Shown: piece after piece, positions 7,182 through 64,000 of the stretch
Position numbering within the stretch: position 1 is the stretch's first letter
Layout: the number at the start of each line of letters is the position of its first letter
Origin: Mobula hypostoma
Taxonomy: Eukaryota
Length of the DNA: 64,000 nucleotides
Reading direction: 5' to 3'
Assembly: GCF_963921235.1 (NCBI RefSeq)
Contig: NC_086107.1
Location: 105,526,001-105,590,000 of the forward strand
Translations under genes and position numbers: made by a program
Notes under the pieces: model-generated
What the model saw: only the letters and a program-made list of their open reading frames with translations
The model's database searches: none
Told to the model about the DNA's origin: nothing

Positions 7182-7424
7182 TGGCAGCAGCACATCCTAT
7201 GTGCAGGTCTCGGACTCTTAGGACCGGTAACACTGAAACGATCTGGTGGTCTGTGGGGTACCAGTGTGTCCCAAGTGGCATCCATTTTGTCTCTCACTGA
7301 TCGAATAGTGGGTAGTATACAGGTTTCTCAGGGACTTCTGGCAATACTGTTTGATGTTGGGCTCACTGGTTGCATTAGTGACCAAGTGCCGTTATAACAG
7401 CGGATGTTAATGCTTTTTCTACAG

Positions 7425-8094: not shown

Positions 8095-8310
8095 AACACG
8101 AGGAAATCTGCAGATGCTGGAATTTGAAGCAACACACATAAAAGTTGCTGGTGAACGCAGCAGGCCAGGCAGCATCTCTAGGAAGAGGTACAGTCGACGT
8201 TTCGGGCTGAGACCCTTCGTCAGGACTAACTGAAAGAAGAGCCAGTAAGAGATTTGAAAGTGGGAGGGGAAGGGGGAGATCCAAAATGATAGGAGAAGAC
8301 AAGAGGGGAG
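8095..8310 (-). mobile_element. Penelope-like terminal repeat fragment with hammerhead motif
   Basis: Contains agtcCTGACGAagggtctcagcccGAAAcGTCgact (8192-8227, minus). The same family adjoins Penelope-type ORF ends at ~22140-22680 and ~36700-37220. Confidence 0.7.
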
Positions 8311-12385: not shown

Positions 12386-12524
12386 TTATTTATAATAATT
12401 TCCGAAGTATTGTTGGTAGGCAGTTTGGAATCCAATCCTGTTGGCCAGGTAATCACAGGGATAGAAGGACTCACATAGTTCTCTACGATGCTCGTAAGGT
12501 GTCTTGTAGTAATACTCCCGGTGC
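12386..12524 (-). CDS. bglap: Terminal coding exon of the Gla-protein gene (Gla domain)
   Basis: Acceptor cttcattctag, phase 2. Reads (R)[48 protein letters not shown], with the ExxxExC carboxylation motif and two Cys five residues apart. Confidence 0.95.
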
Positions 12525-15500
12525 CTAGAATGAAGACATTAATGTTAAGAATGGTGCTGTATTTTGATTTGTTAAAACAACAGAGTGTGAGGAGTGGAAT
12601 GTTTTGGGGGTTAGGAAGGAAGGATTTTAGTTTGGAGACCGTGATGAAAAAGTTTGTTCACCTATACATCAGCCACGCTGTTGTAGACCTTGCTTCATTA
12701 TGTTAGAGAGGATTTTTAGAACATTTCTTTAAACTTCCACTTTGATTCCGAGGAGTTGTTGGTGGTTGGGAACAGGATTCATTGGATTTACCTGAACTTC
12801 TCACCCCTCACCCCCCTAGAGAGAGTGGAGAGTGCTGGGAGCACTGCCAGGAGTAGTGGTGGAGGCAGATACATTGGGGGTATTTAAGAAACTCTTCAAT
12901 AGGCACACAGATGATAGAAAAATGAAGAGCTTATGTAGAAGGGTTGGATTGATGTTAGTGTTGGTCAAATGGTTGCCACAACATTGTGGGCTGAATGGCC
13001 TGCACGCTGTAGTGTTCTACATTTAAATCCTCACCTAAGCTTCGCTTCAACCCACTGTATCCCTCAGGTACTCCTCAGCCCTAGACTATTCCCTTACATC
13101 TTACATTCTGGAATTCTTCACCCCCCCCCCCCCCCACCGGCACCCTGAAAGCCCCCGGACCTTTTGACCAAACACCAGCAGATAGTCAAACTCTGGTCAC
13201 CTCTACCAACCGACACTCAGCGGGGAAGCATATCCGAGAATCCCCCGGGGTTGGGTTTGTAGCATTAGCGCTGCAGCTGGTAGCAGATCTGCTGCTTTAC
13301 AGTTCCAGAAACCCAGGTTCAATTCTGACCTTCTGCACTGTCGGTGTGGAGTTTGCAGGCTCCCTCTTTGACTGCGTAGCTTCCACCAGGTGCTTCCGTT
13401 TTCTCCCATATCCGAGAGAAATGCAACACAGTAATAGGTCATTTCACCCAATGAACACATATGTCCTTGGAATGTGGGAGGAAACCAGAGCACCCGGAGG
13501 AAACCCACACACTCACAGAGAGAACGTACAAACTTCTTACAGACAGTGGCAGGAATTGAACCTGGGTCACTGGCACTGGAACACCGATATGCTAACCACT
13601 ATACTATTGTGCCAGTTGGTTAATTGGCCATTGAAAATTGCCCCTTCAGTGTAGGTGAGTGGTGGGATTAAGGTAAATGGATGGTAATTGGAATGAAGGG
13701 TCCTGTATCTCTCATGAATGTGGAGCAGCGAACCAGAACTGCTGAAGAAAGATCATTGAAAAAGAATATTAAATTCCATGTGTCTGACCTTTCATAATAT
13801 TCACGGATTGATCTTCTGGGCCTCTTCACAACAGAGTTGGCTTTCTGCTTCTCGAGGAAGGGACCTAGAACAATGAAGAATAATAATTGAGATGATAAGT
13901 CAATGTGATGGAGTATCAGGAAGTTGCTCTGATGAGGTTCATTGGGAAAACTCAAAAGTTTGAAACAAATTTACTATCAAAAGACAATGCTTTTAAGAAG
14001 TATTCACTGCCCTTTGGAAGTTTTCACATTTTATTGTTTTACAACATTGAAACAGTGGATTTAATTTGGATTTTTTTTGACACTGATCAACAAAAAAAGA
14101 CTGCGTCAGAGTGAAAACAGATCTCTACAAAGTGATCTAAATTAACTACAATTATAAAGCATAAAATAATTGTTTAAGTATTCATCCCTTTTATTATGAC
14201 ACACTGAATCATCAGTGGTGCAGCCAATTGGCTTTAGAAGTCACATAATTAGTTAAATGGAGATCACCTGTGTGCAGTCAAGGTGTTTCAATTGATTGTA
14301 GTAAAAATATACCTGTATCTGGAAGGTCCAATTGCTGGTGAGTCAGTATCCTGGCAAAAACTACACCATGAAGACAAAGCAACTCCGTGAAAAGGTTATT
14401 GAAAAGCACAAGTCAGGAGATGGATACAAGAAAATTTCCAAGTCACTAAAGTACAATTAAGTCAGTTATCAAGAAATGGAAAGAATATGGCACAGCTGTA
14501 AATCTGCCTAGAGCAGGCCATCCTCAAAAACTGAGTGACTGTGCAAGAAGGGGACTAGGGTTCTATGACATCTCTGGAGGAGTTACAAGCTTCATGGAAG
14601 AGACTGCGCATACAGCAACTGTTGTCCGGGTGGTTCACCAGTGGAAGGCTTGTGAAGGTAGAGGGTAAAATGAATGCAGCAAACTACAGGGAAATCCTGG
14701 AGGAAAACCTGATGCAGTCTGCAAGAGAAATGTGACTTGGGAGATTTGTTTTCCAGCAAACAATGACCCCAAGCATACAACCAAAGCTGCATGGGGGAAT
14801 GGTTTAGAAACAACAAAGTTAATACCCTGGATTGCCCAAGTTAGAGTCCAGACCTCAATCCAATTGAGAATTCGTGGCTGGACTTGAAAGGGGCTGCTCA
14901 CTCCTGATCCCCATGCAATCTGACAGAGCTTGAGCAGTTTTGTAAAGGAGAATGGGGGAAAATTGCAGTGTCCAGATGTGCAAAGCTGATAGAGACCTAT
15001 CCACACAGACTCAAGGCTGTAATTGCTACCAAAGGTGCATCTACTAAATACCGTCTTGAAGGGGGTTAGTAATTATGCAATCAATTATTTTGTTTAATAA
15101 TTGTAATAAATTTAGACCAATTTGAAGAAATTTGTTTTCAGTTTGACACAAAAGTCTTTCCTGTTGATCAGTGTCAAAAAAGCCACATTAAATCCACTGT
15201 GATTCAATGTTGTAAAACACAAAAACTTCCAAGGGGGTGAATACTTTTTACAGGTATTGTAAACATCACTGTTGGATTCCGATGTTCTTGATCCAAGGTT
15301 TTATCCATAGTCAGGAAAGAAGCAGAAAACTTGTTATTTCACGATTGTTTTGTTAAGAGTGGATAGGACAAAGGGAGGTTGAGCAAGCAGTGATAGAGGT
15401 TTACTAAGGGGGAGAGGGAGAGGGAGAACACCTAGCATAGAAAAACTATTTTTACACCCACAGAGATGAGGAAAATTCCATGCAAATTTTAAAATAAGAA

Positions 15501-18500
15501 TTAACCAATTAGAAAGCTGTTATTCAAATACTGCAGTGCCAGGTTAACCTATGAGAAAGCAATTATTCAAATAATGCGGAACAAAGAGGTTTATAGAGCT
15601 TCCCAAAATCATTCTTTGTGAATCCACTAGAGCAGGGGTTTCCAACCTCGGTTAATGGTAGGGGTTCTTGACATAAAACCCCCTGCACTAGAGCATATTA
15701 AACTGTTGTATGTTTATAAGAACTACTTAAAATACAAGCAGATAATTAATTGTTAAACTGCGAAGAAAATAACAATTAAATAGTCTAATCTAAGAATGAA
15801 ACAGTTGGATCCAGCATCACTATATACTACCCTGAGATTCATTTTCTTGCAGGCATTTACAGTCGAACAAAGAAATACAATAGAAACAATGAAAAGCTAA
15901 ACAGCAAGAAAGATTGACAATGTGCAAAAGAAGACACACTCTGCATATATTTAAAAAAGCAAAGAAAAAATAATATTGAGAACGAGTTGTACGGTTCTGG
16001 AAAGTGAGTTCAGACTGCAGGTTGTGGAATGAGTTCGGTGTTGAGTTGAGTGAAGTTATCCACACCGGTTCAGGAGCCTAATAGTTGAAGGGTACTAACT
16101 GTTCCTGAACTTGGTGGTGTGGGACCTAGGTTCCCAATGGCAGTAGCACAAAGAGAGCATGGTGTGGATGGTGGGGGCTCTTTGGTGATGGATGCTGCTT
16201 TCTGGCGGCAGTGCTCCTTACAGTTCTGCTCAATGGTGGTTAGGGATTTTTCTGTGATGGACTGGGCTTCCTTCCTCCTCTTGCTCGATCCCTTTGTGTT
16301 CTCTGTTTAGTAATAGGGAGCATTTTCTTCCGCTGTGATTTGAAAACACTTGGAACCTGATGTTTGTTTCACAAGTTGGATGCAGAGTTAGGCGACAGAT
16401 TGGGCTGTAGCCAGGTCATGTAGTTGGACCTGGACCTGGAGCTGGAAGTCATGGTTGGCCCAGTCTCCCCTCCTGGGACGGGGTACTCTGGTTACCAGCA
16501 CGGAGCGTGGCCAAGTGTCCACAACACCATCTGGCAGTGCATTTGTGATTGGGTGATCAGACAAGCACCCTCCTCTCTGTTCCCTTCCTTCTCAAGTTAC
16601 TGATCAAGGCTCCCCCTTTGTTGGCATTCCTTCTTCCAATGTTTTTGTGTCTTCAATGGCTGCCAAGACTCCAGCAGCTGGGAGCCAGATGCTAATACTC
16701 AGACCTGAACCTGACACTGTTTGAAGCCTGATCATGGACTTTGGACCTCAAATCTGCTTTAGTAATCCAGTGACTGAAGAGTGATTCTTCGGTCTTAAGG
16801 CGCCAGAACTCTGAGTGAAAATGTATGTCGTCCCAGCGTCTCGGTGCCCTGCCACACTCCACTCTAGCAGAACGGTTCAGTCTCCCAGCCTCTATTCCGG
16901 GTGCCTCAGTGCCTTTGCAAGATTTACGCTCAGCAATTTGTTTAGCTCAAAGCTTAAAATTAGCTTTTAAAAAACAAAATTTACATCCTGTTCATGTGGA
17001 AGGGGAGCTATTTCCTTTACATTTGATTGGCCATAAAGCCAATGAGAAAGTGATGTATCGGAACTTGTTTTTTGGATGTGTTTCATTCTAGCAGCTTAGC
17101 TGTTACATGCTGACTGTTAAAGAAACACGCCCGCTTGCTTTCAAGGTCTCCACAACTGTTGTTCTCAGAGGTTTTGATTAAAAAATCTATTTACCTATTT
17201 TTGTACTTGCACAGTTTGTCAGTCTTTGTGTGTACCTTTTCAGCAATTCTGGTACTACTTCTGCTGTGAATGTCTGCAAGAAAATGAACCCCAGTACTTA
17301 GTGATATATACATACTTTGAACTTTTGAACTACTTGAGTGGTAGAATCTTGGGCAAGTTGATAGAAATGTTAGAATCAGGTTTAATATCACCGGCAAATT
17401 TGTTAACTTTGTGGCAGCAGTACAATGCAATACATAATATAGAAACGAGTAAATCAATTACAGTAAGCATATTAGAGGAAGGTTTTTTACTCAGAGAGTG
17501 GTTGGTGGAATACACTGCCTGAGTCAGTGGTGGAGGCAGATACACTAGTGAAGTTTAAGAGACTACTAGACAGGTATATGGAGGAATTTAAGGTGGGGGC
17601 TTATATGGGAGGCAGGGTTTGAGGGTCGGCACAACATTGTGGGCCGAAGGGCCTGTAATGTGCTGTAATATTCTATGTTCTATATACTGTATGTATATTA
17701 AATAGTTAAGTTAAAAATAGTGCAAAATCAGAAAAAATAAAAATAGTGAGGTAGTGTTCATGGGTTCAATGTCCATTTAGAAATCGGATGGTAGAAGGGA
17801 AGAAGCTGTTCCTGAATCACTGAGTGTGTGCCTTCAGGCTTCTGTACCTCCTCCCTGACACTAACAATGAGAGGTGGGCATGAACTGGGTGAGGGGCGTC
17901 CGTAATAACGGACGCCACCTTTCTGAGTCACCGATCATTGACAATGTCTTGGATACTACCAAGACCAGTACCCATGATGGAGCTGACAAATTTTACAGCT
18001 TTCTGTAGCTTCTTTTGATCCTGTGCAGAAATGTGCGGAAAATTAAAATAAAAAATAGGATCAGTGTAAGTCAGAGATTCCCAACCTGGGATCCGTGGAT
18101 CCCTCAGTTAGGGGCCCTTGGCGTTAAAAAGGCTGGGAACCCCTGGTTGTAATTGGATGCCCGATGGATGGTGTGGAAATAGTGGGACATGGGGCCTGTT
18201 TCTGTGGTGATCCGTTCTCTGACTATTTTCCCCATTTTTGTTTGCCAATTATTTTCAGAAAGAAAGTGACTATTACCTCCACCTGCAGCCTGACTCACTT
18301 TCTCAGCAGAATCTGGAATAGAGAAAAAAAAAATAGAATTTTGATTAATGAAGCCTTTCATCAGAACGGATTTTAGACCCTCCCTCACATTTAATGACAT
18401 TTCACTCTGTCCCGGTATTGTTCACTACCTTTAGCATCCGGCCCACTTGCATTCTCACCAGAGTCTGAATCATAAGGAGGAGGATTTCAATTTCCCAGCC

Positions 18501-21500
18501 ATTTATCAGAATGACTTTTCTCTCCTCGTGAAATCACCAACACAACTGGACTGAAGCCACCAACAGCATGATTTCAGGCCTTCAAAGGCAAGGATTTTGT
18601 TGATCTGAGGAATTTCTCTTTTCATTTGACGGCGGGGGGATTTTCACAGGGTTCTTCAGGCAGTTTATCTGGCCTTTCTCCATCAATAAACAGAACCTCG
18701 ACTCCATTTAGTCCAATTGCTTCCAACCTACATCTGTGTGACAGTTGACGTGCTCTTGCTCTTTCCAACCACCTTCAGTTCCCTGGCTCCGATCGCCTCA
18801 TTTTCACTATGGACGTCCAGTCCCTACACACTTCTATCCCCCATCAGGAAGGCCTCAAAGCTCTCCGTTTCTTTCTGGACAACAGACCTAACTAGTTCCC
18901 CTCCACCATCACCCTCCCCTACCTAGCAGAATTGGTCCTCAAACTCATCAAGTCATGATGAAAGGCCTGAAATGTCAACTGTTTACTTCTCTCCACAGAT
19001 GCTGCCTGACCTGTTGAGTTCCTTCAGAATTTTTGTGTGTCCGTGTCCATGTCCAGCCTGGTTTTGGACTGACATCAGCAAAATCCTCTGATCTTTACGC
19101 ACAAAGAGCACAGAGCAACAATTCCCATGTTTAATGATCTGGAATAAATCCTGGAGTTGTTTTGTCAGCATGCTTTACCAAGTTCCCTCTCCCAGGTTTA
19201 GAGGGGGATGCAAATATTCTGCTGAACTTCAGAAAGTAGAGATTTGTAGCACTGTTCCCAGCTTTAGGATATGTCGAATGAAACTCGTTTGGTGTCATCA
19301 CTGGGACACATCCCATAGTGGTGGATTTGGACCAGCCTTGTCATTCATATCCTACAGCACTTCAGGAGGCCACATCCTAGTTAGGAAAATAACTCCACTT
19401 AGGAGGCATCCCTGCTGAAACCCTAAAGCTCGGCAGAGGGAGCTGTTGCCTGATTGCTCATGTTGGAGAAGAGAAGGATGTTCCATGGGGCCTCAGAGAC
19501 ACCACAGTCTTCAAGAAAATGAATGAGAAAGTGGTTTACCACAGTTAGCGTGCCCAATGGTGGTTCAGGTTTCAGGGTTACACAATCAACAGGATCATAG
19601 CCACCCCCTCGTAGAACCATCTCACCCCCTTCCCCTGTAAACCCCATACAGACAGATTCACAAACCATCATCTCTTCCAAGTCCAATACTTTTGCCTTTG
19701 AAGCTTTCTTTAGAATCTGAAACAGAAACCATTTTTTAAAATTAGAAGATGGAAGTTGACTGTGAAGATTCACAATGTCAGTGTTGCTCTTCGCTGGATG
19801 GGCCTCAGCGCCTCCCTTGCTATAAGATGCAGGACAGGCAGTAAGCAGCAGGGGACCAGAGACTCTACAGTGACATTATCCCTAATCTCCACTGTCTGTC
19901 CCCCCCCCCCCCAGAGAAGGAGCACAGTCTAGGGCCCTGTCACTACTGGTCACTGAGGGACTGAGCCTTTCAAACGCTTCAGGGCTGCACTGTCTAAAGG
20001 AGGATACATGAGTGATGTCAGGGAATATCCTGGATTGTAGATATAGTTAACACAGGGAAAGGCACAACCAGATTTTATTTACTGTGTCCAGTAAAACTCT
20101 GATAATTGTAACTAATGTAAAGAAACTCACATTGTGACTGTTATGTACTGTGAACAGAAAAACCCAGATAATCCTTTGAGATTTCAATGATTCCGGGTTG
20201 CCAGATTTTACAAACTGGAATGTTATTCATATATGCTGAAGGGTTTTGGCCTGAAACGCCGACTGTTTACACTTCTGGACAGGTGCTGCCTGGCCTGCTG
20301 AGTTCCTCCAGCATTTTGTGTGTGTTGCTCTGATTTCCAGCATCTGCAGATTTTCTCTTATTCGTGATGTTATTTACATTAATCACTCAACACACCTTTT
20401 AATTTGTTTTGCTTTGAAGATGTTACACCTTGTTATAATAAATTCTCCATGGAAACTGGTAAGTCTGAGGGACCGTGGAAACCAGGAGCCCAGAAAGCTT
20501 CAGGAGGGGCTGAAACAGGTGGGTTTCAGATGAGTACTGCAATCGTTGCCCAGCGAGACCATCGGAATGCAATTGCAGTTTTACTGAATATTATGAATAA
20601 AGTATAGTTTGGGGGGGGGGGGAAAGTGTTCTCACAAAGCCCAGCAAAGGCCAATCAATACAAATTACTTTCTGGATCTATTACTGCAGCCGACAATGAA
20701 TGTTGAACGGTTGTGGTACAAAAAGATGTCGGCCATTCGGCCCGTTGTATCAGTGTTGGGCACTATTACAGCTCGGGAAGTTCTTCTAACCACTGAAATA
20801 TCTTTTAAAGTTCTTTTTTTAAACAATCTAACAATAGATCTAAACCTTCTTCATGCAACTTGTTCCAGATCACAGCCATCTGCTACCACATTCCCTCGGA
20901 TTCTTCTGCCAAATGGTTTCAATCTGTGTGCCCCGGTGAGGAATTTTACAAACAGGGATATTTTAATATGAAAATCTTAGTATCTCGAGCTGCAGAGTGA
21001 CTCTCTCTCTCTGCAGAATCTAGAATTTACAAAAAAGAGCAGAATTACTGTTCAATTCAAAACCTCTGCATCCCATTACCAGAATAATTCTCAACTTGCC
21101 TTTCTGTTTTAATAGGACTTTGCCCTATATATGTCACATTCTTTACAGATCAAGAGAGCTACCTTTAGTATCTGGACCACTCTCGTTCTCAGCAGAGTCT
21201 AAAATACGAGAATTGGAGTCTTAATTTCTGTTACACCAATAGTTTTCAAAGATTCTCATATCACTTACAAACACCTGCACACTCAAGTTTTTGGCCACAG
21301 AATTGCCACTTACTAGATTTTTTTTTCCTGTTTTTCACACCATTCTCTGTAAACTTTAGAGACTGTTGTGTGTGAAAATCCCAGGAGATCAGCAGTTTTA
21401 TGTGATACTCAAACCACCCTGTCTGGCACCGACGATCATTCCACAGCCAAAGTCACCTAGAATAAGTTTCCTCTATATTCTGATGTTTGGTCTGAACAAC

Positions 21501-24500
21501 AACTGAACCTCTTGACCATGTCGTCATGCTTTTATGCATTGAGTTGCTGCAATGTGATTGGCTGGTTTGATGTTTGTATTAACGAGCAGATGTTCAGGTG
21601 TACCTAATAAAGTGGCCACTCAGTTATAGAGTTGGTTATACTCACAACACGCTGGAGGAGCTCAGCAGGTCGGGCAGCATCTGTGGAAAAGATCTGTCGA
21701 CGTCGACAGATCTTTTCCACGGATGCTGCCCGACCTGCTGGGCTCCTCCAGCATGTTGTATTGCTTTGACCCCAGCCTCTGCAGGTTATTTTGTGTTTAC
21801 GATAGAGTTGGTTAACCTGCGAAATTTCTGAGAAAGGTATAGAGTTTTTCAGCATTTGCTTCGAACAGATTAGCTGGTCTCTTGCCATAAAGAGGCATGT
21901 ATATGGAAAAACAGAATCTTTTTTCTTCATAGAAATATCAGATACTACAGGACATTCATTTAAAGTGAAACGGAATAATCTAAAAGGAGATGTGTGGGTA
22001 AGTCTTTTTTACACTGAGAGTTGTAGGTGCTTGGAAAGGGCTGCTAGAGAGAGCTGCAATAGCATTAACAACAAGGCACATGAATTTGCAGGGAATGGCG
22101 GATATGGATGACGTGAAGGCAAGACAGAGGTTTAATTGGGCGCAAACACAGGAGATTTTGCAGATGCTGGAAATCCAGAGCAACACACACAAAATGTTGG
22201 AGGAACTCAGCAGGTCAGGCAGCATCTATGGAGGGGGAATAAACAGTCAACGTTTCGGGCTGAGATCCTTCATCGGGACTGGAAAGGAAAGAGGGACAGA
22301 GCCAGAACAAGAGGGTCCGGGAAGGCAAGGAGTACAGTTTAGAAGGAGATGGGTGAAGTCAAATGGGTGGGGGTAGGGGGTTGAAGTAAGAAGCTGGGTG
22401 GCGTGAGGTGGAAAAGGTAAAAGGCAGGAGGAGGAGGAATCTGAGAGGAAAGGAGACAGGGAAGGAGGAGGGGCACCAGGGGGAGGTGATGGGCGGAAGA
22501 GGAAAGAGGGGTGCCAGAGTGGGGAATTGAAGAATGGTGAAGGGAGGAGGGGAATTACCGGAAGTTGGAGAAATCGATATTTATGCCATCAGGTTGGAAA
22601 CCACCCAGACGGAATATGAGGTGTTGCTCCTCCAGCCTGAGGGTGGCAGTAGAGGCGGCCGTGGACCAACATGTCGAGATGGGCCCGAAAAGTTAACTGT
22701 TTATTCCCCTCCATATTTTAATTTGGCACCGATTTCAGCACAGACATCTTGGGTTGCGGTGTCCGTTCCTGTGCTGTACTCCCCTATGTTCTGGAGTCTG
22801 GCGGGGCCTCAAATCCAACAGAACCCCTTAATGTCATTCACAAAGTGTAAAAACAAAACACTCTATGCAAGGATCAGGAATAAATACCCGAGGTGTTTCC
22901 ATTCTGTTTGTAGCCATACTGCACCTATTCAATAGGGTGTGCCATACGCTCGGGCAGGTCAGTTTAACAAAGGCAATGGTACAGTAGTTTTGTATAAGAG
23001 CCCTTGGAGAGCAAGGCTTTGAGGGATAAGGGTTGAAAGCAGGAAATTGGGACCAGCTGGTTGGGTGCCATGGTCTCCTTGGACTAGTTGGGCTGAAGGG
23101 CCTGTATCTGGGCTATATTGCTCTATGACTATGGGCCAAAGACAGAAATATGGGACTACTTCAGGTAGACAATTGGTCAGCAAGTCTGGAAATGCCTGCT
23201 CCCAAGCTGCACGTATGGTATCTGTGACTCTAAGCGGCACATCTTTGTCATCATCAGAATGTTCCAAAATGCTTTACAGCCAATAATGTTATCCCTGTGA
23301 TATAGGGAAAATAGCAGCCACAAATAGAGCACAGAAATAAGAATATTGTAAGATAGTTGGTGGAGATAAACATACAATATTGCACCTAAATATTGCAAGC
23401 CACTGAGAGGGTGCAGAGGGCCAATCACGGAGCATGTTTCAGAACTGGTCACCAAGAGGGCGCAGACAGCCAATCACAGCTTGGGTGTCAGAGTCAGTCA
23501 CCGAGAGGGTGTAGAGAGCCAATCACAGTTTGGGTGTCAGAGTTGGTCACCGAGAGGGTGCAGAGAGCCAATCACAGTGTGTGTTTCAGAGTACATCACT
23601 CAAAAGGGTGCAGAAGGCCAATTTCAGTACGGAGTTTGGTGTAAGCCTCTCGGAGGGCACAGACAACCAATCACAGAACATATTTCAGCATAAGCCACCC
23701 ACAGGGTGCAGCGGACCAATCAAAGCACAGGTTTTGGAGTAACCCACTGGGGGGGGGGGGCGGTGGGAGAGGGTAGGTGTAATTAAAACTTTTTAACATG
23801 GAAAATGAATCTATAAGTTTGAACCCAAGTGTGGTTGCATGTTGCTGTCACTGGAGCACTGAATAGGCTTCCCCCACCTCTCTACACAACCTGACCTGGA
23901 AATCAGGGTCAGGGGTGAAAGTTCCTAACCTGCACCATCTCCTTGCTCTTTGGTTACGGGAGCCATGACGGGAGCTCTAGTTCAAGGCTCACAGTAATGG
24001 GTTTTCAGCTGATGGCAATGCACCAGATGGGTCATTTGCCAGACTTTTTAAATAAATCTTCTTAGTTTTGAACATTAGGAACAGTCATCATCATTATGTG
24101 CCCTGTTGTATGACGTGGGCAATCATGGTCCCACGACCATGATTGTTCTTGGCAAATTTTTCTACAGAAGTGGTTTGCCATTGCCTTCTTCTGGGCAGTG
24201 TCTTTACAAGGTTGGTGACCCCAGCCATTATCAATACTCTACAGAGATTGTTTGCCTGGCGTCGATGGTCTTGTGATACGAACCAGCTGCTCATACGACC
24301 ATCCACCACCAGTTCCCATGGCGGACTGGGGTGTGGGTTAAGCAGGCACTACACCTCGCTCAAGGATGGCCTGCAGGATAGCGGAGGGAAGGAGTGCCTT
24401 CATCTCTTTGGTAGAGACGCGTCTCCACCCCGCCACCCAATTAGGAACAGTAATAATTTTAACAATATGTTGATACCTCGAGCTACAGAGTTACTCCCTG

Positions 24501-27500
24501 TTTCTGTAGAATCTGGAATAAAAAAAACTGGTTTAGTTCACCAATCACAGGAAATCCTGTTATCAGAGTAGAATCAAACCTCTCCCTCTCATTTTAAAGA
24601 CATTTTAAAATGAGAAATAGAAGCAGGAGTCGGCCATCTGGCCCATCGAGCCTGTTCTACTATTCAATAAGATCATGGCTGATCTGGCCATGGACTCAAC
24701 TCCACCTACCTGCCTTTCCTCCCTTAATCCTTAATTCCCCTGCTGTGCAAAAATCTATCAAACTATGACTTAAAATATATTTAATGAGGTAGCTTCTACC
24801 CCTTCCCAGGACAGAGGATTCCATAGATTCACTATTCTCTGGGAAAAGCAGTCTCTCTTCATCTCTGTCCTAAATGTATTCCCCAGAATATTGAGGCTAT
24901 GTCCCCGAGTTCTCGTGTCACTTCCAAGTTCAAAGTAAATCTATTATCAAAGTGCATATATGTCCTACTCTGGACATTCTCCACACATCTTTCTTTATAT
25001 ACGGGGCCCAAAACTGCGCACAACATTCTGACCAATGCCTTATAATAGCTCAGCATTCTTGGTTCTACATTCTAGTCCTCTGAAAATGTATACCAACAGA
25101 CTTGCCACAGTTAGTGAGCTAACGCTGAGGCCAACCAGAGTGTAGTTTTCAGAATGAGACAGCAGGGGGCAGTACTCTCACACCCGCAAATGGACCCAAA
25201 TCTGACATGCAGTCATTAGTCCCCAGACAGCATCATTCACAAACTATGATCTTCTCTGGACCCAATCACTTGGATTTTCCTTTCAACACTCTTGTCTTCT
25301 TGCTGCTGCCATCAGGAAGAAGGCACAGGAGCCTTAAGACCTGCACCACCAGGTTTGGGAACATTTATTACTCCTCAACCATCAGGCTCTTGAACCAGAG
25401 GGGATAACTTCACTCCATCCATCACTGAACTGTCCCACAACCTACGGATTCACTTTCAAGGACTCTTCATCTCATGTTCTTGATATTTATTGCTTATTTA
25501 TTTACTATCATTATTTTTTTTATTTTCTCTCCTTTTCGTATTTACACAGTTTGTTGTACTTTTTTACACACTGGTTGTTATCAGTCCTGTTGGTTGTGGT
25601 CTTACATTGATTCTACTGGGACAATTTACAACGACCAATTAACCTACCTGGTACATCTTTGAACTGTGGGAGGACACCCAGGACCTGGAGGAAACCCATG
25701 CATTCCATTGGGGAGGTGTATAGAAACTCCTTACAGAGGATGCCGGAATTGAACTCGGCACTCCAGGATGCCCCGAGCTGCAATAGCGTGCGAACGCACA
25801 ATCATAGTGTGCGAACCACTACACTACCCTGCGTCCATTCTTTGTCCTCGTGGTTTTTTGAGGGACAGGAACACTGGTTCTGGGCACAGGTAGAGCAGCG
25901 GCTAAGAGACTTTCCTCCATAACAAGTCAAGTCACTTTTTATTGTCATTTTGACCATAACTGCTGGTACAGTACACAGTAAAAACAAGACATTTTTCAGG
26001 ACCATGGTGCTACATGAACAATACAAAAACTACACTGAACTATGTGAAAAAAACACTAGATTACAGACCTAGTCAGGACTGCATAAAGTGCACAAAACAG
26101 TGCAGGCATTACAATAAATAATATGCACAGTAGAGGGCAGTAGGTTGGTGCCTGCAGAAACATATAAAACCAGAGGAATTATGTTTAAGGTGAGGAGGTA
26201 GAGAGGATCCAAGGTCATGTTTATCATCCAGAGGGTGGTTACACTTTAGAACACACGGTCTGAGAAAATGGTGGAGGAAGATACTCTTGCAAGAATGAAA
26301 AAAATTGACCCTTCTAGGTGTAGAAGTCCTTAGGCTAAGTCTTGGTAAAAGGGGGTTACTAGACATGGACTCAAATTTGAGGGGCAACCCTTAAGAACAG
26401 GAATAAGGAGGAATTTTTTTTAGCCAGATAGTAGTAAATCTGTGGAATACTCTGCCACAGACTGTGGTAGAGGCCAAGTCCATGCATATATTTAAGGCGG
26501 ATGTTGGTCGTTTCCTGATCGATCAGAGCATCAAAGGATATGGCGAGAAGGTAGGTGTATGGGGTTGAGTGGGATCTGGGAGCAGCCACGATGGAATGGC
26601 AGACTCGATGGGCTGAATGGCCTAATTCTGCTCCTATGTCTTATGGTCTTGTGGTCTTATAGCCTGGAAACAGTCCATCCCGCCCACCAAACTAGACCCA
26701 TTTGCTCGTATTTGGTCCACATCCCTCTAAACCCCTGCTATCTGTATATATCCAAATGGATTTTGGATGCTGTTATTGTTACTACTTCAACCACCTGCTC
26801 CAGCAGCTCAGTCGCTGTGGGAAGAAGTTGCCCCTCAGGTCCCTTGTAAGTTTTTACCCTCTCAACCTTGCACCTATGCCCTCTAGTTTTTAGTTTGCCT
26901 TTGCTGGGAAAAAGGCTGTGTGCATTTACCCCCACCTATGCTCCTTCATGATTTTATACACCTCTGTAAGGTCACCCCTTAGTCTCCTTTGTTCAAGGAA
27001 TAAAGTCCTAACCTGCCCAACCTCTCCCTATAACTCAGTCCTGGCAGCATCCTTGAAAATCTCCATTCTTTTTCCAGACTAGTGACGTCTGTCCTAGAAC
27101 AGGACGACCAAAATTGTGTGTGATGAAGGTCACCTTGGATATGGTAGGCCAAGGGACCTGCTACCATGTTGAATGCCTCTTTCCGTGTTGTATGAATCCG
27201 AATCAGGTCTACTCAGAAGTGGTATGATTCTTTGACCATGAATCTATGGCACTATTAATCCCCACTGTAACTTATTATCACTTATCATTTCCTTCAACTG
27301 CCATTCCTGGATACAGAAGCCTTTCATCTCCTTTATGGTTTCTGCCCAAGGCTTTGGCACCCATTGGCTTCCCCACAGTTAGGACAACTGCCAATAGATA
27401 GATTACACAAGATATAAACTTCATAAATAGTTACCCCAAGTTGCAGAGTGCCTCTCCTTTTCAGCCGAATCTGGAAAAGAAGGGGAAGAATTTCAGTTCA

Positions 27501-30500
27501 TCGGTCACAGGATGTACTCTTTTAGATCAGTTCTATAATGCTCCCTCACTCTATCTAGGGGATGTACTGTTCACAGATCAGGAGAAGTACCTTTAGTATC
27601 TGGTCCACTCTCGTTCTCTGCTGAGTCTAGAACAAAAGGAAGAGAATTTCAGTTTCAACATTCAGTTCTGGGTGAGTCCAGAACTAGAGGGCAATACTAT
27701 AAAAAAAAAACACAGAAGAAATTCCTCCTCATGTCCAGTTGAATGAGTGACTCCTTATTCTAAAACTAGGCCCCATAATTTGACATTCTCCATGAGGGGA
27801 AGTAACCTCATCACCCTCCCTGTTGAACCCCCTCAGAATCTGGTATGATTCAACCATTTTCAATTCCCATTGAACAGATAAACGAGAACAATGCCAGTAA
27901 TAACACAAACCATCATCTCCTCTGGATCCAATCAATTTGATTTTCCTTTCAACACTTTCGTCAGAATCTGGAATGAAAACGATAAGATGGAAAATCAATG
28001 GGAGAAATTCACAGATACAAAGTGCGTCCACCAGATATGGGAGCGGAAGTAGGCCATTTGACCCATCGAGTTTGCTTCACCATTTCATCATGGTTGATCT
28101 ATTTCCCGTCTCAGCCCCAATCTCCTGCCGTTTCTCCATATTCCTTCATGCCCTGACTAAACAAGACTCTACGAACCTCTGCCTTAAATATTCCCAATGA
28201 CCTGGCTTCCACAACCGCCTGTGGTAACAAATTCCAGTGTCTACAAATCTCTTGTGTCAACACCATTCTGAGAGAGTCTGGCACAGAGACCCAGCAGGCA
28301 GACTGGCTCTGGCCCTACGCACGACTTCAATAAAACTCTAAATCGTTCACTCACTGGAATTGTTGTTCTCGTTCTTCTCTCCATTCTCATCCGAATCTGT
28401 ATCAGAAACAAGAAAGCAACCTCTGATCACGAATGTCATTTTGAACTCTCAACGTGTCAGAATATTTCGTTAGGAATTTGAGGAGATTTGTAAGGTTAGC
28501 AAAGACTCTTGCAAATTTCTATACATGTACCATGCAGAACATTCTAACTGGTTGCATCACTGTCTGATATGGAGGGGCCAGTGTGCAGGATCAGAAGATA
28601 TCTGTGGAGGTCTGTAAACTCAGCCAGCTCCTTCACGGGCATTAGCTTTCACAGCATCGAGGACATCTTCAAAAGGTGATCCATCAAATGGTGGCATCTA
28701 TCACTGAGGAGCCCCATTACCCAAGCAATTATTACTACCATCAGAGAGGAGGTACAGGAGCCTGAAGACACACACTCAATGACTCAGGAACAGCTTCTTC
28801 CCCTCTCCCGATTTCCGAATGGACCATAAACCCGTGAACACTATCTCAGCATTTTGCTCTCTAATTTTTTAAAAAAATAATACATTATATATATTTGTTG
28901 TACTTTATAGTATATTTTACGTATTGAATTGCTGCCACAGAATAATAAATTTCACTACACATGCCAGTGATAATAAACCTGATTTTGGTTCTCAGGATCG
29001 CTCAGTTCCCTGGGTTTTTGTGAAGCCAGTAAATGCAGGCGGTGAGGATAGGACTCGTGGTTTGCATGCAACCCCAGTGCTCTCCCAAATCTCAGGAAGT
29101 GTTTGGGACACTACTCAGCTTGTGTTTCATTGTCTCTACGAGATCACCACTGGAGCAGAATTAGGCTATTTGGCCCATCAAGACTGTTCCACTATTCGAT
29201 TATGGGTCATTTATTACCCCTCTCAACCTTATTCTCCTGCCTTGTCCTCAAGGCCTTTGGTGCCCTTACTAATCAAAAACCTATCCACATCCACTTCAAA
29301 TGTATCTGATGACTTGGTCTCCACAGTTGTCTGTGGCAACTAATTCCACAGATTCACCACCCTCTGACTAAAGAAATTCCTCCTCATCTCTGTTCTAAAG
29401 GGATGGCCTTGTATTCTGAGGCTGGGCCCTCTGGTCCTAGACTCTCCCACTAGAAACATCCTCTCCATGTCCACTCCATCTAGACCAGGGCTTCCCAACC
29501 TTTATTATGCCATGGACCATTACCATTAGCCAAGGGATCTGTGGACCCCAGGTTGGGAACCCCTGATCTAGGCCTTTCGACGTTCAATAGGTTTCAATTA
29601 AATTCTCCCTCATTCTTCTAAACATCAACGAGTACAGGCCTAGAGCCATCAAATGCTCCCCATACATGAACCATTCCATTCCTGAGATAACTCTCGTGTA
29701 TGTCTTCTGGATGTTCTCCAATACCAACTTAGATACGGGCCCAAAAGTGCCCACAGTATCTAAACACCATCTGACCAGTGCCTTCTAAAGTCTTGGCATC
29801 ACATCCTTGCTTTGATCAACAAGCAACTCAGCTAATGGAGGACCCTGGACTCAGGGTGACTCTTCAGTTCTGCACTGAGCGGACTGGATCAAGGGACAGA
29901 TATTCTGAAGCCACTGCGACCACTGATGTGATTTCTGGTTAAAACCGAGCATTTACATGGAATAAATTATGAACGACTTTTAGAGAAAGGTGGATTTAAG
30001 GGCAGGTGGCTTCTGGCAGATGTTTGAACTCCACAAGATGTTTGAGAGGCGGGACTGCATTTTTGTGTCTACGTAATGGTTAGCGAGACTTTGGACAAAG
30101 TCCCAGATGCGAAACAGATTAGAAAACTAACAGCCCACAAGGAAGGTCAATCCCAAATTGTTTTAGTGTCAGGACGCAAAAGGTAATGATGGCCCCAAGT
30201 CGAAGTGATGGCGCGGTAGCAACGCGATTAGCATAGCACTTTACAACGCCAGCGATAGCGGTTCAATTTCTGCCGCTGTCAGGAGTTTGTACGCACTCCC
30301 TGTGACCGCTTGGCTTTCCCCCCTCATCCAGAGATGTACGGGTCAAGGTTAGTAAGTTATAGGAATGCCAGGTTGGTGCCAAAAACCTGGCAACACTTGT
30401 GGGCTGCTTCCAGCACATCCTCAGACTGCGTCGGTCATTGACGCAAACAATGGATTTCACTGTATGTTTCGATGTCCATGTGACAAATAAAGCTAACCTT

Positions 30501-33500
30501 TGAAATTTATAAGTGACAGGATAGTTACCTATGCTGAGCAGATGAAAGTCTGAGCTACCCTGGTGTATCGCAAGGTTCACTGATCCATTCCTTACATTCT
30601 TGGACGCAGGCCAGCAAGCTGCGTTTCAAGGACTGCACAGTTAAGCAGGTTGTGACTGAGTCAAGTGCTCGCAAGTTTGGCTGACAGCAAGGACGGAGGT
30701 TGCCCAGGAAGGAGTAATGGTCAGGTGGTCAGATTAGTTCTAAATGGAATTTGATCCACGCAGCACAGTTGGAAAACGCAGTGAGGAAAGGGAATACCTA
30801 ACGGCAAGAAGCTGTGTGGAGTGTGGGAACAGAGGGATCTCACAGATCCCAGAACGCAGCAGGATATGTAGAAAAGATGGCATACAGACGGCTCTGCGGC
30901 TAACTGATCTATCTTCCCAGCTTTGGTGTGAACCTTATTCCTGCCTCTGAGATAGGCCCACGTGGGTCAGATCTGTATTCTGCCTGCATGTACAGGCCTC
31001 ATCCCCATTAAAGTGTGCCAAGGCCTGGTGTCTGGGGGTGAGATCTTCCTCGCTTCACCTCCCACCCCAGCTCTCCAGGTGCACAGAAGTTGTGACTCCA
31101 GAATCTCGACTTTGCACTTCTTCACAAGAACAATGAATTAACACTGCTTCCCACAGTCACAACCCTGTAGAATATAGAACATTACGGCACAGTACAGGCC
31201 CTTCGGCCCTTCATGTTGTGCTGATCTCTCAGTCTACTTTGAGATCAATCTAACCTTTCCCTCCTCATAGCCCCCCATTTTTCTATTATCCATGTGCCTA
31301 CCTAAGGTTTCTTAAAAGACCCTAATCTATCTGGCTCTACCAATCACCCCTGACAGGGCCTTCCACACACCAACAACTCTCTGTGTAAAGAACTTACCTC
31401 TGACGTTCTCCCTATCCTTTCCTCTAAAAACCTTCAAATTATGCCCCCCTTATATTAGCCATTTCCACCCAGGGAAAAAGTCTGTGGCTGCCCACTCTTG
31501 TACACCTCGATCCCAATCACCTCTCATCCTTCTTTGCTCCAAAGAGAAAATTCAACCTATCCTCAAATATATGAGGCCTTACGTCGAAGCTTTTCAACTG
31601 ATCTCAGATCGTTAATCAAGTGTCAGATAAATAACATTTGATATTAAAAGCATAAATATCCATACCTCGAGCTGCAGAGTGACTCTCTCTCTTTGCAGAA
31701 TCTGGAAAAGAAAGAACTGAAGTTCAGCTCACCAATGGATGAAGTTCTTTAGGGCCCATTATCAGAATAATGTTAAATTCTCGATTGCGTTTTTGAGTGA
31801 CATAGTTAATTCAGAAACAAAGGTTCTGAACTTAAAGAGGGGTAACTTTGAAGGTATGAGACGTGAATTAGCTAAGATAGACTGGCAAATGACACTTCAA
31901 GGATTGACGGTGGATATGCAATGGCAGGCATTTAAAGGTTGCATGGATGAACTACAACAATTGTTCATCCCAGTTTGGCAAAAGAATAAATCAAGGAAGG
32001 TAGTGCACCCGTGGCTGACAAGAGAAATTAGGGATAGTATCAATTCCAAAGAAGTAGCATACAAATTAGCCAGAGAAAGTGGCTCACCTGAGGACTGGGA
32101 GAAATTCAGAGTTCAGCAGAGGAGGACAAAGGGCTTAATTAGGAAGGGGAAAAAAGATTATGAGAGAAAACTGGCAGAGAACATAAAAACGGACTGTAAA
32201 AGCTTTTATAGATATGTAAAAAGGAAAAGACTGATAAAGACAAATGTAGGTCCCCTGCAAACAGAAACAGGTGAATTGATTATGGGGAGCAAGGACATGG
32301 CAGACCAATTGAATAATTACTTTGGTTCTGTCTTCACTAAGGAGGACATAAATAATCTTCCAGAAATAGTAAGGGACAGAGGGTCCAGTGAGATGGAGGA
32401 ACTGAGCGAAATACATGTTAGTAGGGAAGTGGTGTTAGGTAAATTGAAGGGATTGAAGGCAGATAAATCCCCAGGGCCAGATGGTCTGCATCCCAGAGTG
32501 CTTAAGGAAGTGGCCCAAGAAATAGTGGATGCATTAGTGATAATTTTTCAAAACTCATTAGATTCTGGACTAGTTCCTGAGGATTGGAGGGTGGCTAATG
32601 TAACCCCACTTTTTAAAAAAGGAGGGAGAGAGAAACCGGGGAATTATAGGCCGGTTAGCCTAACGTCGGTGGTGGGGAAACTGCTGGAGTCAGTTATCAA
32701 GGATGTGATAACAGCACATTTGGAAAGCGGTGAAATGATCGGACAAAGTCAGCATGGATTTGTGAAAGGAAAATCATGTCTGACGAATCTCATAGAATTT
32801 TTTGAGGATGTAACTAGTAGAGTGGATAGGGGAGAACCAGTGGATGTGGTGTATTTGGATTTTCAAAAGGCTTTTGACAAGGTCCCACACAGGAGATTAG
32901 TGTGCAAACTTAAAGCACACGGTATTGGGGGTAAGGTATTGGTGTGGGTGGAGAATTGGTTAGCAGACAGGAAGCAAAGAGTGGGAATAAACGGGACCTT
33001 TTCAGAATGGCAGGCGGTGACTAGTGGGGTACCGCAAGGCTCAGTGCTGGGACCCCAGTTGTTTACAATATATATTAATGACTTGGATGAGGGAATTAAA
33101 TGCAGCATCTCCAAGTTTGCGGATGACACGAAGCTGGGTGGCAGTGTTAGCAGTGAGGAGGATGCTAAGAGGATGCAGGGTGACTTGGATAGGTTGGGTG
33201 AGTGGGCAAACTCATGGCAGATGCAATTTAATGTGGATAAATGTGAAGTTATCCACTTTGGTGGCAAAAATAGGAAAACAGATTATTATCTGAATGGTGG
33301 CCGATTAGGAAAAGGGGAGGTGCAACGAGACCTGGGTGTCATTATACACCAGTCATTGAAAGTGGGCATGCAGGTACAGCAGGCGGTGAAAAAGGCGAAC
33401 GGTATGCTGGCATTTATAGCAAGAGGATTCGAGTACAGGAGCAGGGAGGTACTACTGCAGTTGTACAAGGCCTTGGTGAGACCACACCTGGAGTATTGTG

Positions 33501-63997: not shown

Positions 63998-64000
63998 CCG

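Follow-up and report, generated by a model that had tools for sequence, protein, structure and literature searches.

In other vertebrates, osteocalcin (Bgp) measures about 100 residues, and a locus of the ray Mobula hypostoma in which dozens of micro-exons lie upstream of a Gla exon raises the question of whether these micro-exons belong to the Gla gene and how large a precursor they would then encode. The stretch analysed comprises 64,000 nt of contig NC_086107.1 (assembly GCF_963921235.1, positions 105,526,001 to 105,590,000) and is referred to below as the window; coordinates are those of the window unless they exceed its length. The original prediction had proposed an osteocalcin/MGP-family gene in which exon 2 had been multiplied dozens of times.

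The locus is a single Bgp gene, the chondrichthyan orthologue of osteocalcin, read from the minus strand; similarity searches thus bear out the proposed family and narrow it to Bgp. Its last coding exon (12386..12524, minus strand) encodes the Gla domain and the stop codon and is connected to the preceding exon by the joint 12523/13788 in the contigs of 4/4 runs (see below). The translation contains the core motif ExxxExC, as that definition is applied in the available text of PMC8006282; a second Cys follows within a few residues. The mature Gla peptide has 53 residues and two Cys. The propeptide exon (13789..13864, minus strand), which has joints with CT..AC ends on both sides, encodes a carboxylase docking-type motif, followed by a predicted furin-type site, RPRR (KRPRR), directly before the mature peptide; the positional rule for such motifs is F-16, A-10 and V/L-6, and the propeptide and cleavage region aligns with human FVSKQEGSEVVKRPRR. 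Both exons are intact and lie downstream of the micro-exons, as had been predicted.

The Gla exon is 81–83% identical to shark proteins annotated as 'osteocalcin-like' or hypothetical (E values of 3e-17 and 1e-15). Searched against 1.84 billion representative proteins, it yielded 31 matches, all of 40–252 aa, the best being a protein of Chiloscyllium punctatum (P0002) and the Bgp of the elephant shark (P0003). Published Bgp fragments of Pristis pectinata match in 44/47 residues, and their propeptide part in 18/19. The whole 3.48-Gb genome contains one Gla exon, and no second one was found within the 164 kb around the locus. To judge by sequence comparison, the closest relatives are Bgp rather than Mgp proteins: the docking motif A-N-S-V is followed by K-R-P-R-R, whereas Mgp carries ANxF inside the mature protein and has no furin-released propeptide and one S-x-E exon. 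The gene departs from the compact four-exon organization and the precursor of about 100 aa found in bony vertebrates, with at least 11 coding exons in one RNA contig; because the catshark orthologue departs from it likewise, the four-exon feature is no criterion for the chondrichthyan branch.

Neither the Gla exon nor the propeptide exon nor the proteins P0001 (of Heptranchias perlo), P0003 and P0004 had a match in Pfam; P0001 and P0002 carry the precomputed Pfam tag PF25890. When the Ddx47/Erp27/Mgp neighbourhood was sought with Pfam in the six-frame ORFs of window positions 1–12300, 104 of 105 ORFs showed no domain, and neither Rfam nor ARAGORN produced a match in the window.

Upstream of these two exons, scans of the minus strand reveal 38 micro-exons in the window that have AG/GT borders, are open in phase 1-1 and measure 36, 42, 51 or 57 nt, with a sum of 1704 nt, which reproduces the predicted number and sum exactly. 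The 'about 42' micro-exons of the original prediction consist of these 38, a 39th candidate at 25245–25295 (51 nt) with a poor acceptor in a purine-rich region, and three more copies in which a splice site is mutated (GG as acceptor at 63997 and 44396, GA as donor at 21019). As anticipated for nearly all of them, 36/38 start with D-S-x-E, the exceptions being 63420 (A-S-K-E) and 31701 (D-S-A-K). Matches to the motif AG/ATTCNNNNGA in the window number 36, a count that none of 100 shuffles reached and that compares with an expectation of 3.3; 33 of the 36 are located on the minus strand at 18.3–62.3 kb. At least four types can be distinguished: A (36 nt), B (42/45 nt), C (57 nt) and D (36 nt). 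By nhmmer, 76 homologous copies were detected, 71 of them canonical and in frame. Between copies, exon positions vary 2–4 times less than the flanking introns, a conservation that is in part an ascertainment effect, the copies having been chosen for open frames; within the codons of the C and D exons, variation is highest at the third position. The young copies have not had the time to decay, and many of the micro-exon donors depart strongly from the consensus (GTTCGT, GTTTGT, GTATCA).

Contigs from four public runs (X1–X4, whose label as RNA is a guess), which drop rare isoforms and were aligned over 12301–32300 only, join the Gla exon, the propeptide exon and nine consecutive micro-exons at GT..AG borders and in frame. 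The joints 12523/13788, 13864/18277, 18312/19666, 19716/27435, 27470/27591, 27626/27911, 27967/28355 and 28396/31666 have CT..AC ends and each appear in 4/4 runs, at contig depths of 8 to 1244, depending on the sample. The two junctions that had been predicted, 13789>12524 and 18277>13864, are both among them, and the micro-exons were rightly assigned to the Gla gene, nine being spliced to it in frame. All on the minus strand, the included exons are a type A exon (18277..18312), a C-like exon of 51 nt (19666..19716), a type A exon (27435..27470), a type D exon (27591..27626; 11/12 residues identical to the D segment of P0001), a type C exon (27911..27967; 12/19 identical to the C segment of P0001), a type B exon of 42 nt (28355..28396) and a type A exon (31666..31701). 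Upstream of the latter, the contigs continue into a type D exon (34107..34142), which lies outside the aligned stretch and whose positions 34109–34142 account for 34/36 unaligned contig letters, and then into a C exon. The remaining two letters (CG) fit the 3' end of the type C exon 37767..37823; we infer that the 3' 53–54 nt of this exon form the contig 5' end, a piece that had been aligned to the paralogue at 27913.

Four of the 13 candidate exons in the contig-covered stretch of 18–38 kb are skipped: two of type D (18429..18464, canonical and in frame and bypassed by the joint 18312/19666, and 21163..21198), one of type A (24477..24512) and the doubtful C-like candidate with the purine-rich acceptor region (25245..25295). 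This skipping concerns the dominant contig only and says nothing about the use of these exons elsewhere. The scans further found a decayed type A copy with donor GA instead of GT (20984..21019) and, farther upstream, a type A (38408..38443) and a type D candidate (38909..38944), all on the minus strand. We regard the gene identity and the multi-exon prodomain, taken jointly, as close to certain.

At the other end, the 3' UTR of the transcript measures about 2.2 kb (10219..12385, minus strand; ~2.17 kb) and is delimited by the contigs and an AATAAA at 10237–10242, its colinearity below 12301 being presumed. Record 1 of X1 (2765 nt) places its positions 461–683 on 12301–12523 of the minus strand and continues for 2082 nt below 12301; the X4 contig continues for 2058 nt and that of X3 for 1379 nt, and the contig 3' ends lie 18–23 nt past the AATAAA, 2.2 kb downstream. 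A reading of the 2765-nt contig as some 2,000 nt of micro-exons is ruled out by its minus-strand orientation, which makes the 2082 nt 3' UTR and leaves only 459–460 nt 5' of the Gla exon; the match between the 2084 distinct 31-mers of a model with all exons and these 2082 nt is a coincidence. In runs of other organisms (X5–X20), 23–47% of 17 query words were present.

From 42066 to 64000 (minus strand), the window contains its part of a young tandem array, which extends over 42–71 kb and is built of units of ~1.7–2.05 kb with one C exon (57 nt) and one A exon (36 nt) each. The units are 83–99.4% identical, have lengths of 1644–2055 bp and fall into two interleaved subfamilies. By the scans, the C exons are located at 42066–42122, 43764–43820, 45813–45869, 47533–47589, 49398–49454, 51121–51177, 52986–53042, 54708–54764, 56430–56486, 58294–58350, 60016–60072, 61720–61776 and 63364–63420, and the A exons at 42639–42674, 46408–46443, 48131–48166, 49996–50031, 51719–51754, 53584–53619, 55305–55340, 57027–57062, 58892–58927, 60613–60648 and 62310–62345; two further A copies, 44361–44396 and 63962–63997, have the acceptor GG. 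All lie on the minus strand.

Within the aligned stretch of 12301–32300, neither reads nor contigs displayed an exon above 37823, exon 1 or an A>C or C>A junction. Whether this array enters the mRNA can be approached through the point at which the contigs break. The 5' end of the X1 and X4 contigs lies 459 nt ahead of the Gla exon, and the 31-mer at the break occurs genome-wide only in exons 37823, 42122 and 43820. A k=31 graph simulation returned exactly 459 when exon 43820 was among the reads and 42122 was absent; the alternatives gave 451 with all exons and 621, a run-through to exon 1, with the proximal exons only. Under this simulation, the position of the break indicates that the RNA includes one array exon or more and would speak for exon 43820 and against 42122. 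Since the break suggests the absence of exon 42122, skipping within the array is likely, and because 4/13 candidates are skipped in the proximal stretch, a model in which all exons are included is unsafe; the skipped exon 24477–24512 has the donor GTATCA, as do many of the array A exons. We slightly favour the view that the main mRNA takes in a large share of the young array (at least 20 additional exons).

The window covers only about half of the array of micro-exons. The next 100 kb contain 33 more canonical micro-exons, which, together with the 39 of the window, makes a total of 72 canonical in-frame candidate copies over ~105 kb. The signal-peptide exon, which the original prediction expected beyond 64000, has a candidate at 105650993–105651050, 61 kb beyond the window and ~112.5 kb upstream of the Gla exon; it encodes MRSLLLFALLGLVVHTYCG, has a phase-1 GT donor, and this putative N-terminus resembles those of the catshark and elephant shark Bgp proteins. 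There is no N in the 164 kb of sequence, and the contig measures 117 Mb. A maximal gene model spans ~115 kb and comprises up to 70–71 exons encoding 1128–1142 aa with 117 S-x-E motifs; for a model of 1103 aa, the pI is ~5.1 and D+E+S make up ~43%. The RNA-supported ORF comprises only 199 residues with 10 S-x-E motifs. Given the 199 supported residues and the skipping of 4/13 proximal candidates, the precursor of at least 640 aa stays a prediction, which supposes the inclusion of all exons. By its sequence, the protein shows the S-x-E clusters in an acidic, presumably secreted context that characterize Fam20C-type substrates, which form a functional class and no homology family; a giant protein and its phosphorylation are what we infer from these features.

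The closest precedent is the Bgp of Scyliorhinus canicula (small-spotted catshark), for which Leurs et al. (2021; PMC8006282) describe 13 exons with repeated extra exons, in an orthologous order of signal peptide, extra small repeated exons, docking exon and Gla exon, as far as the available text goes. The RNA-seq-derived catshark protein has a segment of type C as well as one of type D, DSVENESEADTK, immediately ahead of GPFL (PMC8006282, available text). The same multi-exon feature of elasmobranch Bgp, extra repeated small exons that precede the docking exon in the mRNA, is found here, with nine micro-exons in 4/4 runs. The catshark differs in having ~10 extra exons and ~190 aa, as opposed to 72 candidate micro-exons and up to ~1,140 aa in Mobula; in that its repeated pair is SDESLGDDK... 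/ ...GFSSH, whereas Mobula amplifies the A-C pair and C alone; and in that its KKSKR was not predicted as a furin site, in contrast to KRPRR in Mobula (PMC8006282, in the passages at hand). In the same passages, its authors report that no functional domain was found in the repeat region and consider that the repeats might be specific to catshark (PMC8006282). We found no other description of repeated Bgp exons in the literature; PMC13188829, as far as its text is available, deals with catshark bgp expression only.

Other cartilaginous fishes have shorter versions of this arrangement. The 'osteocalcin-like' protein of Heptranchias perlo (P0001, 167 aa) has the order A-C-A-C-D, GPFL docking and Gla, and the partial protein of Chiloscyllium punctatum (P0002, 92 aa) has D-A, docking and Gla; they differ from Mobula in having only 2–5 micro-exon equivalents, although both are gene models or partial sequences in which arrays may be under-annotated. 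Across annotated or RNA-derived shark Bgp proteins, 5–11 micro-exon equivalents are present. The Bgp of the elephant shark (Callorhinchus milii; P0003, 124 aa) shares the signal peptide, three short D-S-x-E segments, GPFLEK docking, a furin-type site and Gla but differs in having neither a C-type exon nor amplification, and is probably the starting state. A search of the protein collection for proteins of 78–2000 aa returned only 2 proteins, with the known catshark Bgp absent; because annotated fish proteins are poorly covered there, the lack of a giant Bgp in it is weak evidence. Comparison of these sequences suggests that the exon types A, C and D predate the Mobula lineage and that the scale, with its A-C pairs and C-only units, is new. 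Dozens of multiplications did thus apparently occur, by tandem amplification, but involved at least four exon types, three of which (A, C, D) are already present in shark Bgp, and not a single exon 2.

More distant parallels exist in other proteins of the mineralised skeleton. The prodomain of teleost osteocalcin 2 is several-fold larger than that of OC1, under tenfold and not known to be made of dozens of micro-exons. OC2 (bgp1b), reportedly described by Laize et al. (2006), resembles the Mobula protein in its enlarged acidic, Ser-rich propeptide, thought to be phosphorylated and calcium-binding (PMC3517302, available text). It differs in representing another paralogue and another lineage. 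A D/E-S-x-E-S motif is visible in teleost mgp sequences too, and Price et al. reportedly described N-terminal Ser-X-Glu phosphoserines in MGP in 1994. Matrix Gla protein, the sister gene of Bgp, likewise has a short phase-1 exon with S-x-E sites after the signal peptide (PMC8006282, available text). It differs in having one S-x-E exon, no furin-released propeptide and a docking site within the mature protein. SCPP genes derive from SPARC-like genes and have phase-0 exons. The SCPP/SIBLING proteins that are substrates of Fam20C are alike in working mode, being secreted, acidic and S-x-E-rich, with many small, symmetric, easily duplicated exons (for elasmobranch scpp, PMC9122587, as far as the text available goes). 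Their origin is unrelated, and no membership is claimed for the Bgp array.

An amplified multi-exon Bgp precursor offers the best overall explanation of these observations and is, in our judgement, probable. The A, C and D exons would be old, being common to sharks, and the array would have arisen by tandem amplification through repeated unequal crossing-over between introns, acting on A-C pairs (units of 1.7–1.9 kb forming a higher-order repeat) and on C-only units (1.55 kb). Because every copy is in phase 1-1, any copy number keeps the reading frame. If most exons are used, a precursor of ~1,100 residues with a pI of ~5 and ~117 S-x-E motifs would enter the secretory pathway, where a Fam20C-type Golgi kinase would phosphorylate the S-x-E serines; γ-carboxylation via the docking motif and cleavage at RPRR would then yield a normal small osteocalcin and a very long polyanionic calcium-binding phosphopeptide that could act in or against mineralisation. 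That the prodomain is phosphorylated and has a function of its own is quite conceivable, though we lean against it. The fullest form of this explanation, a giant polyprotein of ~70 exons and ~1,100 residues, with a ~1,000-residue prodomain carrying >100 phosphoserine sites that is released by furin as a second product with an SCPP/SIBLING-like role (in tesseral, dental or denticle mineralisation), and with an exon number tuned by unequal crossing-over and varying between batoids, we put forward as a speculation that is unlikely to hold in every part.

The array might, alternatively, be mostly silent, exon 1 or another 5' exon being spliced to the proximal nine or ten micro-exons to give a precursor of ~220–300 aa, with the copies at 42–107 kb skipped or confined to rare isoforms. 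Such a precursor would agree with the 5–11 such exons of shark Bgp proteins and with a protein search in which 0/31 relatives exceed 252 aa, and the contigs document proximal exons only (aligned stretch 12301–32300), 4/13 of whose candidates are left out, one of them an A exon whose donor, GTATCA, is of the array type; the contig break, too, fits an absent exon 42122. However, a proximal-only mRNA predicts the 621-nt run-through to exon 1, whereas X1 and X4 break at 459, a point that requires a branch to a second expressed C exon, and low-depth pre-mRNA left the contigs unbroken at exon-intron borders. Splice sites and frame are moreover kept in 71/76 copies, the exons are better conserved than the introns even in old copies, and the used exon 37823 shares the donor GTTCGT and a similar acceptor with the array C exons. 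We regard a mostly silent array as possible but rather doubtful. It is also possible that the exons are used and the expansion is neutral, the prodomain being a disposable spacer that is removed by furin, drifts in length via unequal crossing-over and has no mineral function of its own. Prodomain length and repeats indeed differ widely among catshark, sevengill, bamboo and elephant shark next to a conserved Gla peptide, unit identities of up to 99.4% indicate recent turnover, and a functional domain was not found in the catshark region (PMC8006282, available text). On the other hand, the third codon positions vary most in the C and D exons, D-S-x-E is retained in 36/38 window exons, the C (12/19) and D (11/12) peptides are conserved relative to the sevengill shark, and a tenfold longer secreted precursor would be costly; we consider neutrality somewhat unlikely.

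Two further readings concern the sequence itself. An assembly artefact, in which near-identical units inflated a shorter array, appears very improbable: some units are 98–99.4% identical and thus hard to assemble, but most differ by 4–17%, with private substitutions and indels and lengths of 1644–2055 bp, the older copies at 18–38 kb and 72–110 kb are all distinct, and the 164 kb contain no N within a contig of 117 Mb. That the micro-exons are part of another gene, or open frames that arose by chance, is practically out of the question, given 36 motif matches against 3.3 expected and no other Gla exon in 164 kb; for the nine proximal micro-exons, which share a contig with the propeptide and Gla exons, a different gene is refuted.

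We thus return to the amplified multi-exon precursor: Mobula Bgp is a far larger variant of the known catshark-type multi-exon Bgp. The scale of the expansion is new, but the multi-exon prodomain is older and has its printed precedent in the 13-exon catshark gene (PMC8006282, available text). The extra exons of catshark Bgp would accordingly be no quirk of a single species but an old elasmobranch feature able to expand dramatically, and a gene of this kind will probably be overlooked or cut short by standard gene prediction. Few small proteins of the vertebrate skeleton have been studied as much as osteocalcin, and to our knowledge its precursor has ~100–200 residues in every species examined so far. 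If expressed at ~115 kb, with ~70 exons and >100 potential phosphoserine sites, the Mobula gene would far exceed every other member of the Mgp/Bgp family in size and present a clear natural case in which symmetric micro-exons underwent runaway amplification. Cartilaginous fishes are, as far as we know, largely without the SCPP genes that control calcium phosphate in bony vertebrates, and for this reason the expanded acidic prodomain of Bgp is a testable candidate for mineral handling in the tesserae, teeth and denticles of rays.

The locus is the chondrichthyan Bgp (osteocalcin) gene, carried on the minus strand. Its propeptide exon (13789-13864) encodes a docking-type propeptide and a furin-type RPRR site, and its Gla exon (12386-12524) encodes an ExxxExC core with two cysteines and ends in a stop codon; on translation, 53 residues follow RPRR. 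These hallmarks and the match to chondrichthyan Bgp bear out the assignment to the osteocalcin/MGP family made in the original prediction. Identity amounts to 81-83% with osteocalcin-like proteins from Heptranchias perlo and a protein from Chiloscyllium punctatum, and a search of 1.84 billion library representatives gave 31 matches, of which elephant shark Bgp was the second-best. In the supplement to Leurs et al. 2021 (PMC8006282), fragments of Pristis pectinata Bgp match by reading at 44 of 47 positions and are closer than the Amblyraja fragments. The Gla exon is single-copy in the 3.48-Gb assembly, and no second Gla exon was found within 164 kb.

Upstream of the propeptide exon lies an array of micro-exons, i.e. 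tiny phase 1-1 coding exons that are acidic and rich in serine. In the window, whose GC content of 38-49% is ordinary for a vertebrate, the minus-strand motif AG/ATTCNNNNGA occurs 36 times versus 3.3 expected, a number reached in 0 of 100 shuffles. Scripted scans for canonical copies, defined by AG, a phase 1-1 frame without stop, a length divisible by three and GT, recovered four kinds: types A (36 nt) and C (57 nt, one copy 51 nt), both with several peptide variants, and types B (42 nt) and D (36 nt). Together with the exon at 18277-18312, the scans yield 38 canonical copies in the window summing to 1704 nt, exactly the two figures put forward originally, and 36 of the 38 start with D-S-x-E, in keeping with the claim that nearly all do. 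There is also a doubtful extra copy of 51 nt at 25245-25295, and three copies have mutated splice sites (acceptor GG at 63997 and 44396, donor GA at 21019). The proposal that one small exon had been multiplied holds for the amplification, but its exon types were incomplete, type D not having been told apart from type A.

Contigs from four public sequencing runs of one study (X1-X4), whose kind was guessed as RNA, were aligned to 12301-32300. X1-X4 contain each of the 17 words sampled from the Gla exon, and the contigs of each run join, on the minus strand, 12523 to 13788, 13864 to 18277, 18312 to 19666, 19716 to 27435, 27470 to 27591, 27626 to 27911, 27967 to 28355, and 28396 to 31666. The joints have CT..AC ends, corresponding to GT..AG on the minus strand, and include the two junctions that had been predicted, 18277>13864 and 13789>12524. 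Past the joint from 28396 to 31666 come 36 letters, 34 of which equal exon 34109-34142, followed by a C exon at the 5' end of the contig, which the aligner could place only on a paralogue at 27913. Exon 37767-37823, the next one upstream, would account for this C exon, fitting both its start at 27913 and two surplus letters (CG). One type of RNA molecule thus has nine micro-exons, in genomic order, spliced in frame to the propeptide and Gla exons, giving 199 codons without a stop. Four candidates within the contig-covered stretch are skipped (18429-18464, 21163-21198, 24477-24512 and 25245-25295).

Given the minus-strand orientation of the contig, its other 2082 nt (X1) constitute a long 3' UTR, and the X1 contig has its 3' end at about 10219, 18-23 nt past an AATAAA at 10242. 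Contig depth varies from 8.45 to 1244 across samples, being highest in X2, and no processed Bgp copy was found in the genome. Three features speak against DNA and in favour of spliced, polyadenylated RNA as the source of the contigs: this 150-fold difference in depth, the lack of introns and contig ends that fall at a poly(A) signal. A second AATAAA at 12390 (minus strand) overlaps the Bgp stop codon; the contigs continue for 2.1 kb through to the AATAAA at 10242, and a short-UTR isoform using the signal at 12390 might possibly be made as well.

Contigs built at k=31 are unable to span the near-identical A-C units at 42-71 kb, hereafter called the young array. Those of X1 and X4 extend upstream of the Gla exon by 459 nt and begin in exon 37767-37823, 53-54 nt before its 3' end; the 31-mer at this break occurs at three sites genome-wide, namely in exons 37767-37823, 42066-42122 and 43764-43820 only. 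We simulated the k=31 graph under several models of exon usage and read out how far the unitig reaches upstream of the Gla exon. Its reach is 451 nt if all exons are used, 459 nt if all but 42066-42122 are used, 469 nt if neither 42066-42122 nor 43764-43820 is used, and 621 nt, continuing into exon 1, if only the proximal exons are used. When unspliced pre-mRNA was added to the simulation, the unitig was broken at every exon border; the real contigs have no such breaks, so that low-depth branches were evidently removed by the assembler. The simplest reading, which depends on assembler behaviour, hints that exon 43764-43820 is in the RNA at appreciable depth and that exon 42066-42122 is absent. 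Such a difference between the two exons would hint either at selective skipping inside the array, 42066-42122 being canonical-looking, or at a sequence difference between individuals.

In the next 100 kb of the same contig (positions counted from the window start), further A-C units extend up to about 71 kb; beyond these lie older, mixed copies of types A, B, C and D, the final clear ones at 107.5 and 110.6 kb. At 90235-97876 (NC_086107.1:105616235-105623876), six C exons with identical peptides follow one another without an A exon between, at a spacing of 1373-1559 bp (period 1.55 kb, at 90-98 kb). This C-only sub-array is a second, independent amplification inside the Bgp gene. A profile search blind to frame and splice sites found 76 homologous copies, without exception on the minus strand; 71 of them are canonical with an intact frame, and the other 5 are broken. 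The canonical candidates add up to 72, of which the window contains 39 and the DNA beyond it 33; the array extent originally described was incomplete, the micro-exons running beyond 64000.

A candidate exon 1 encoding the signal peptide is found at NC_086107.1:105650993-105651050 on the minus strand, about 125,050 from the window start and 112.5 kb upstream of the Gla exon. This ATG exon (G at -3, A at +4) encodes MRSLLLFALLGLVVHTYCG, which is similar to the signal peptides of catshark and elephant shark Bgp, and has a phase-1 donor. A maximal model, comprising all candidates minus the four skipped ones, would join 70-71 exons into an open frame 1128-1142 codons long with 117 S-x-E motifs; for an earlier model of 1103 aa we calculate a pI of 5.1 and a mass of ~123 kDa, with 17% Ser, 15% Glu and 11% Asp.

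The Bgp introns hold further features. Between exons 31666-31701 and 34107-34142, a plus-strand open frame of 742 codons (31721-33949) contains a reverse-transcriptase domain (RVT_1, E 6.5e-34), identifying it as a retrotransposon copy antisense to Bgp; the strongest GC skew of the window (0.36) is found here. At 23401-23622, a 49- or 98-bp sequence is repeated 4.5 times in tandem with 80% matches. At 12968-13634 and in many other intronic bins, contig depth climbs into the thousands or tens of thousands, and thousands of contigs fit in part; such bins are dispersed repeats, either expressed or present across the genome. A stretch within the intron that separates the propeptide exon from the Gla exon resembles by eye a tRNA-derived SINE; ARAGORN found no tRNA in it.

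The mean difference between micro-exon copies is 0.08-0.34 at exon positions versus 0.31-0.56 in introns beyond 20 nt, and variation within C and D exons is greatest at third codon positions. Although the copies were picked for open frames, this pattern points to constraint on the micro-exon peptides. Identity among the 16 units at 42-71 kb ranges from 83 to 99.4%, and the units form two interleaved subfamilies of ~1722 and ~1865 bp, with identities of about 88-90% between and up to 99.4% within subfamilies. Such a structure is the hallmark of a higher-order repeat and indicates that the array grew over a long period by repeated unequal crossing-over rather than in one burst. The peptides of the C and D exons are identical to Heptranchias at 12 of 19 and 11 of 12 positions, respectively, and that of the A exon to Chiloscyllium at 8 of 12; the exon types also occur in the catshark Bgp protein derived from RNA-seq. 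The multi-exon prodomain is thus an ancient feature of elasmobranchs. Elephant shark Bgp contains just three short D-S-x-E segments.

Among known cases, catshark Bgp comes closest: PMC8006282 describes 13 exons with imperfect repeats between exons 3 and 12, a feature its authors suspected to be catshark-specific. In teleost OC2 the prodomain is large, acidic and rich in serine (PMC3517302). None of the 31 relatives exceeds 252 aa, the longest evidently being mispredictions, and our literature searches, which covered open-access papers and preprints only, turned up no account of an expansion of comparable size. Both the gene family and the idea of additional, repeated exons in Bgp are already known; new relative to that literature are the 72-copy array, its higher-order structure, its division into four exon types and a precursor that could reach 1,100 residues. 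The original interpretation was accurate on family, junctions and amplification, but incomplete on exon types, array extent and the precedent in catshark Bgp; the protein size and phosphorylation it proposed are still predictions.

Processing steps known from osteocalcin and MGP include signal-peptide cleavage, docking-directed carboxylation, furin cleavage and S-x-E phosphorylation. Part of this is also described in PMC8006282. By the same route, the signal peptide of the Mobula precursor would be cleaved off, the docking motif would direct carboxylation, furin would cut at RPRR to free a Gla peptide of normal size, and a Fam20C-type kinase would phosphorylate the S-x-E serines, the end products being a small osteocalcin and a long polyanionic phosphopeptide. 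In the catshark, PMC8006282 and PMC13188829 place Bgp expression in connective tissues, in scale-bud and tooth mesenchyme, and around mineralising cartilage. Such a phosphopeptide may have a role of its own, in calcium binding or mineral modulation, or may be a tolerated spacer.
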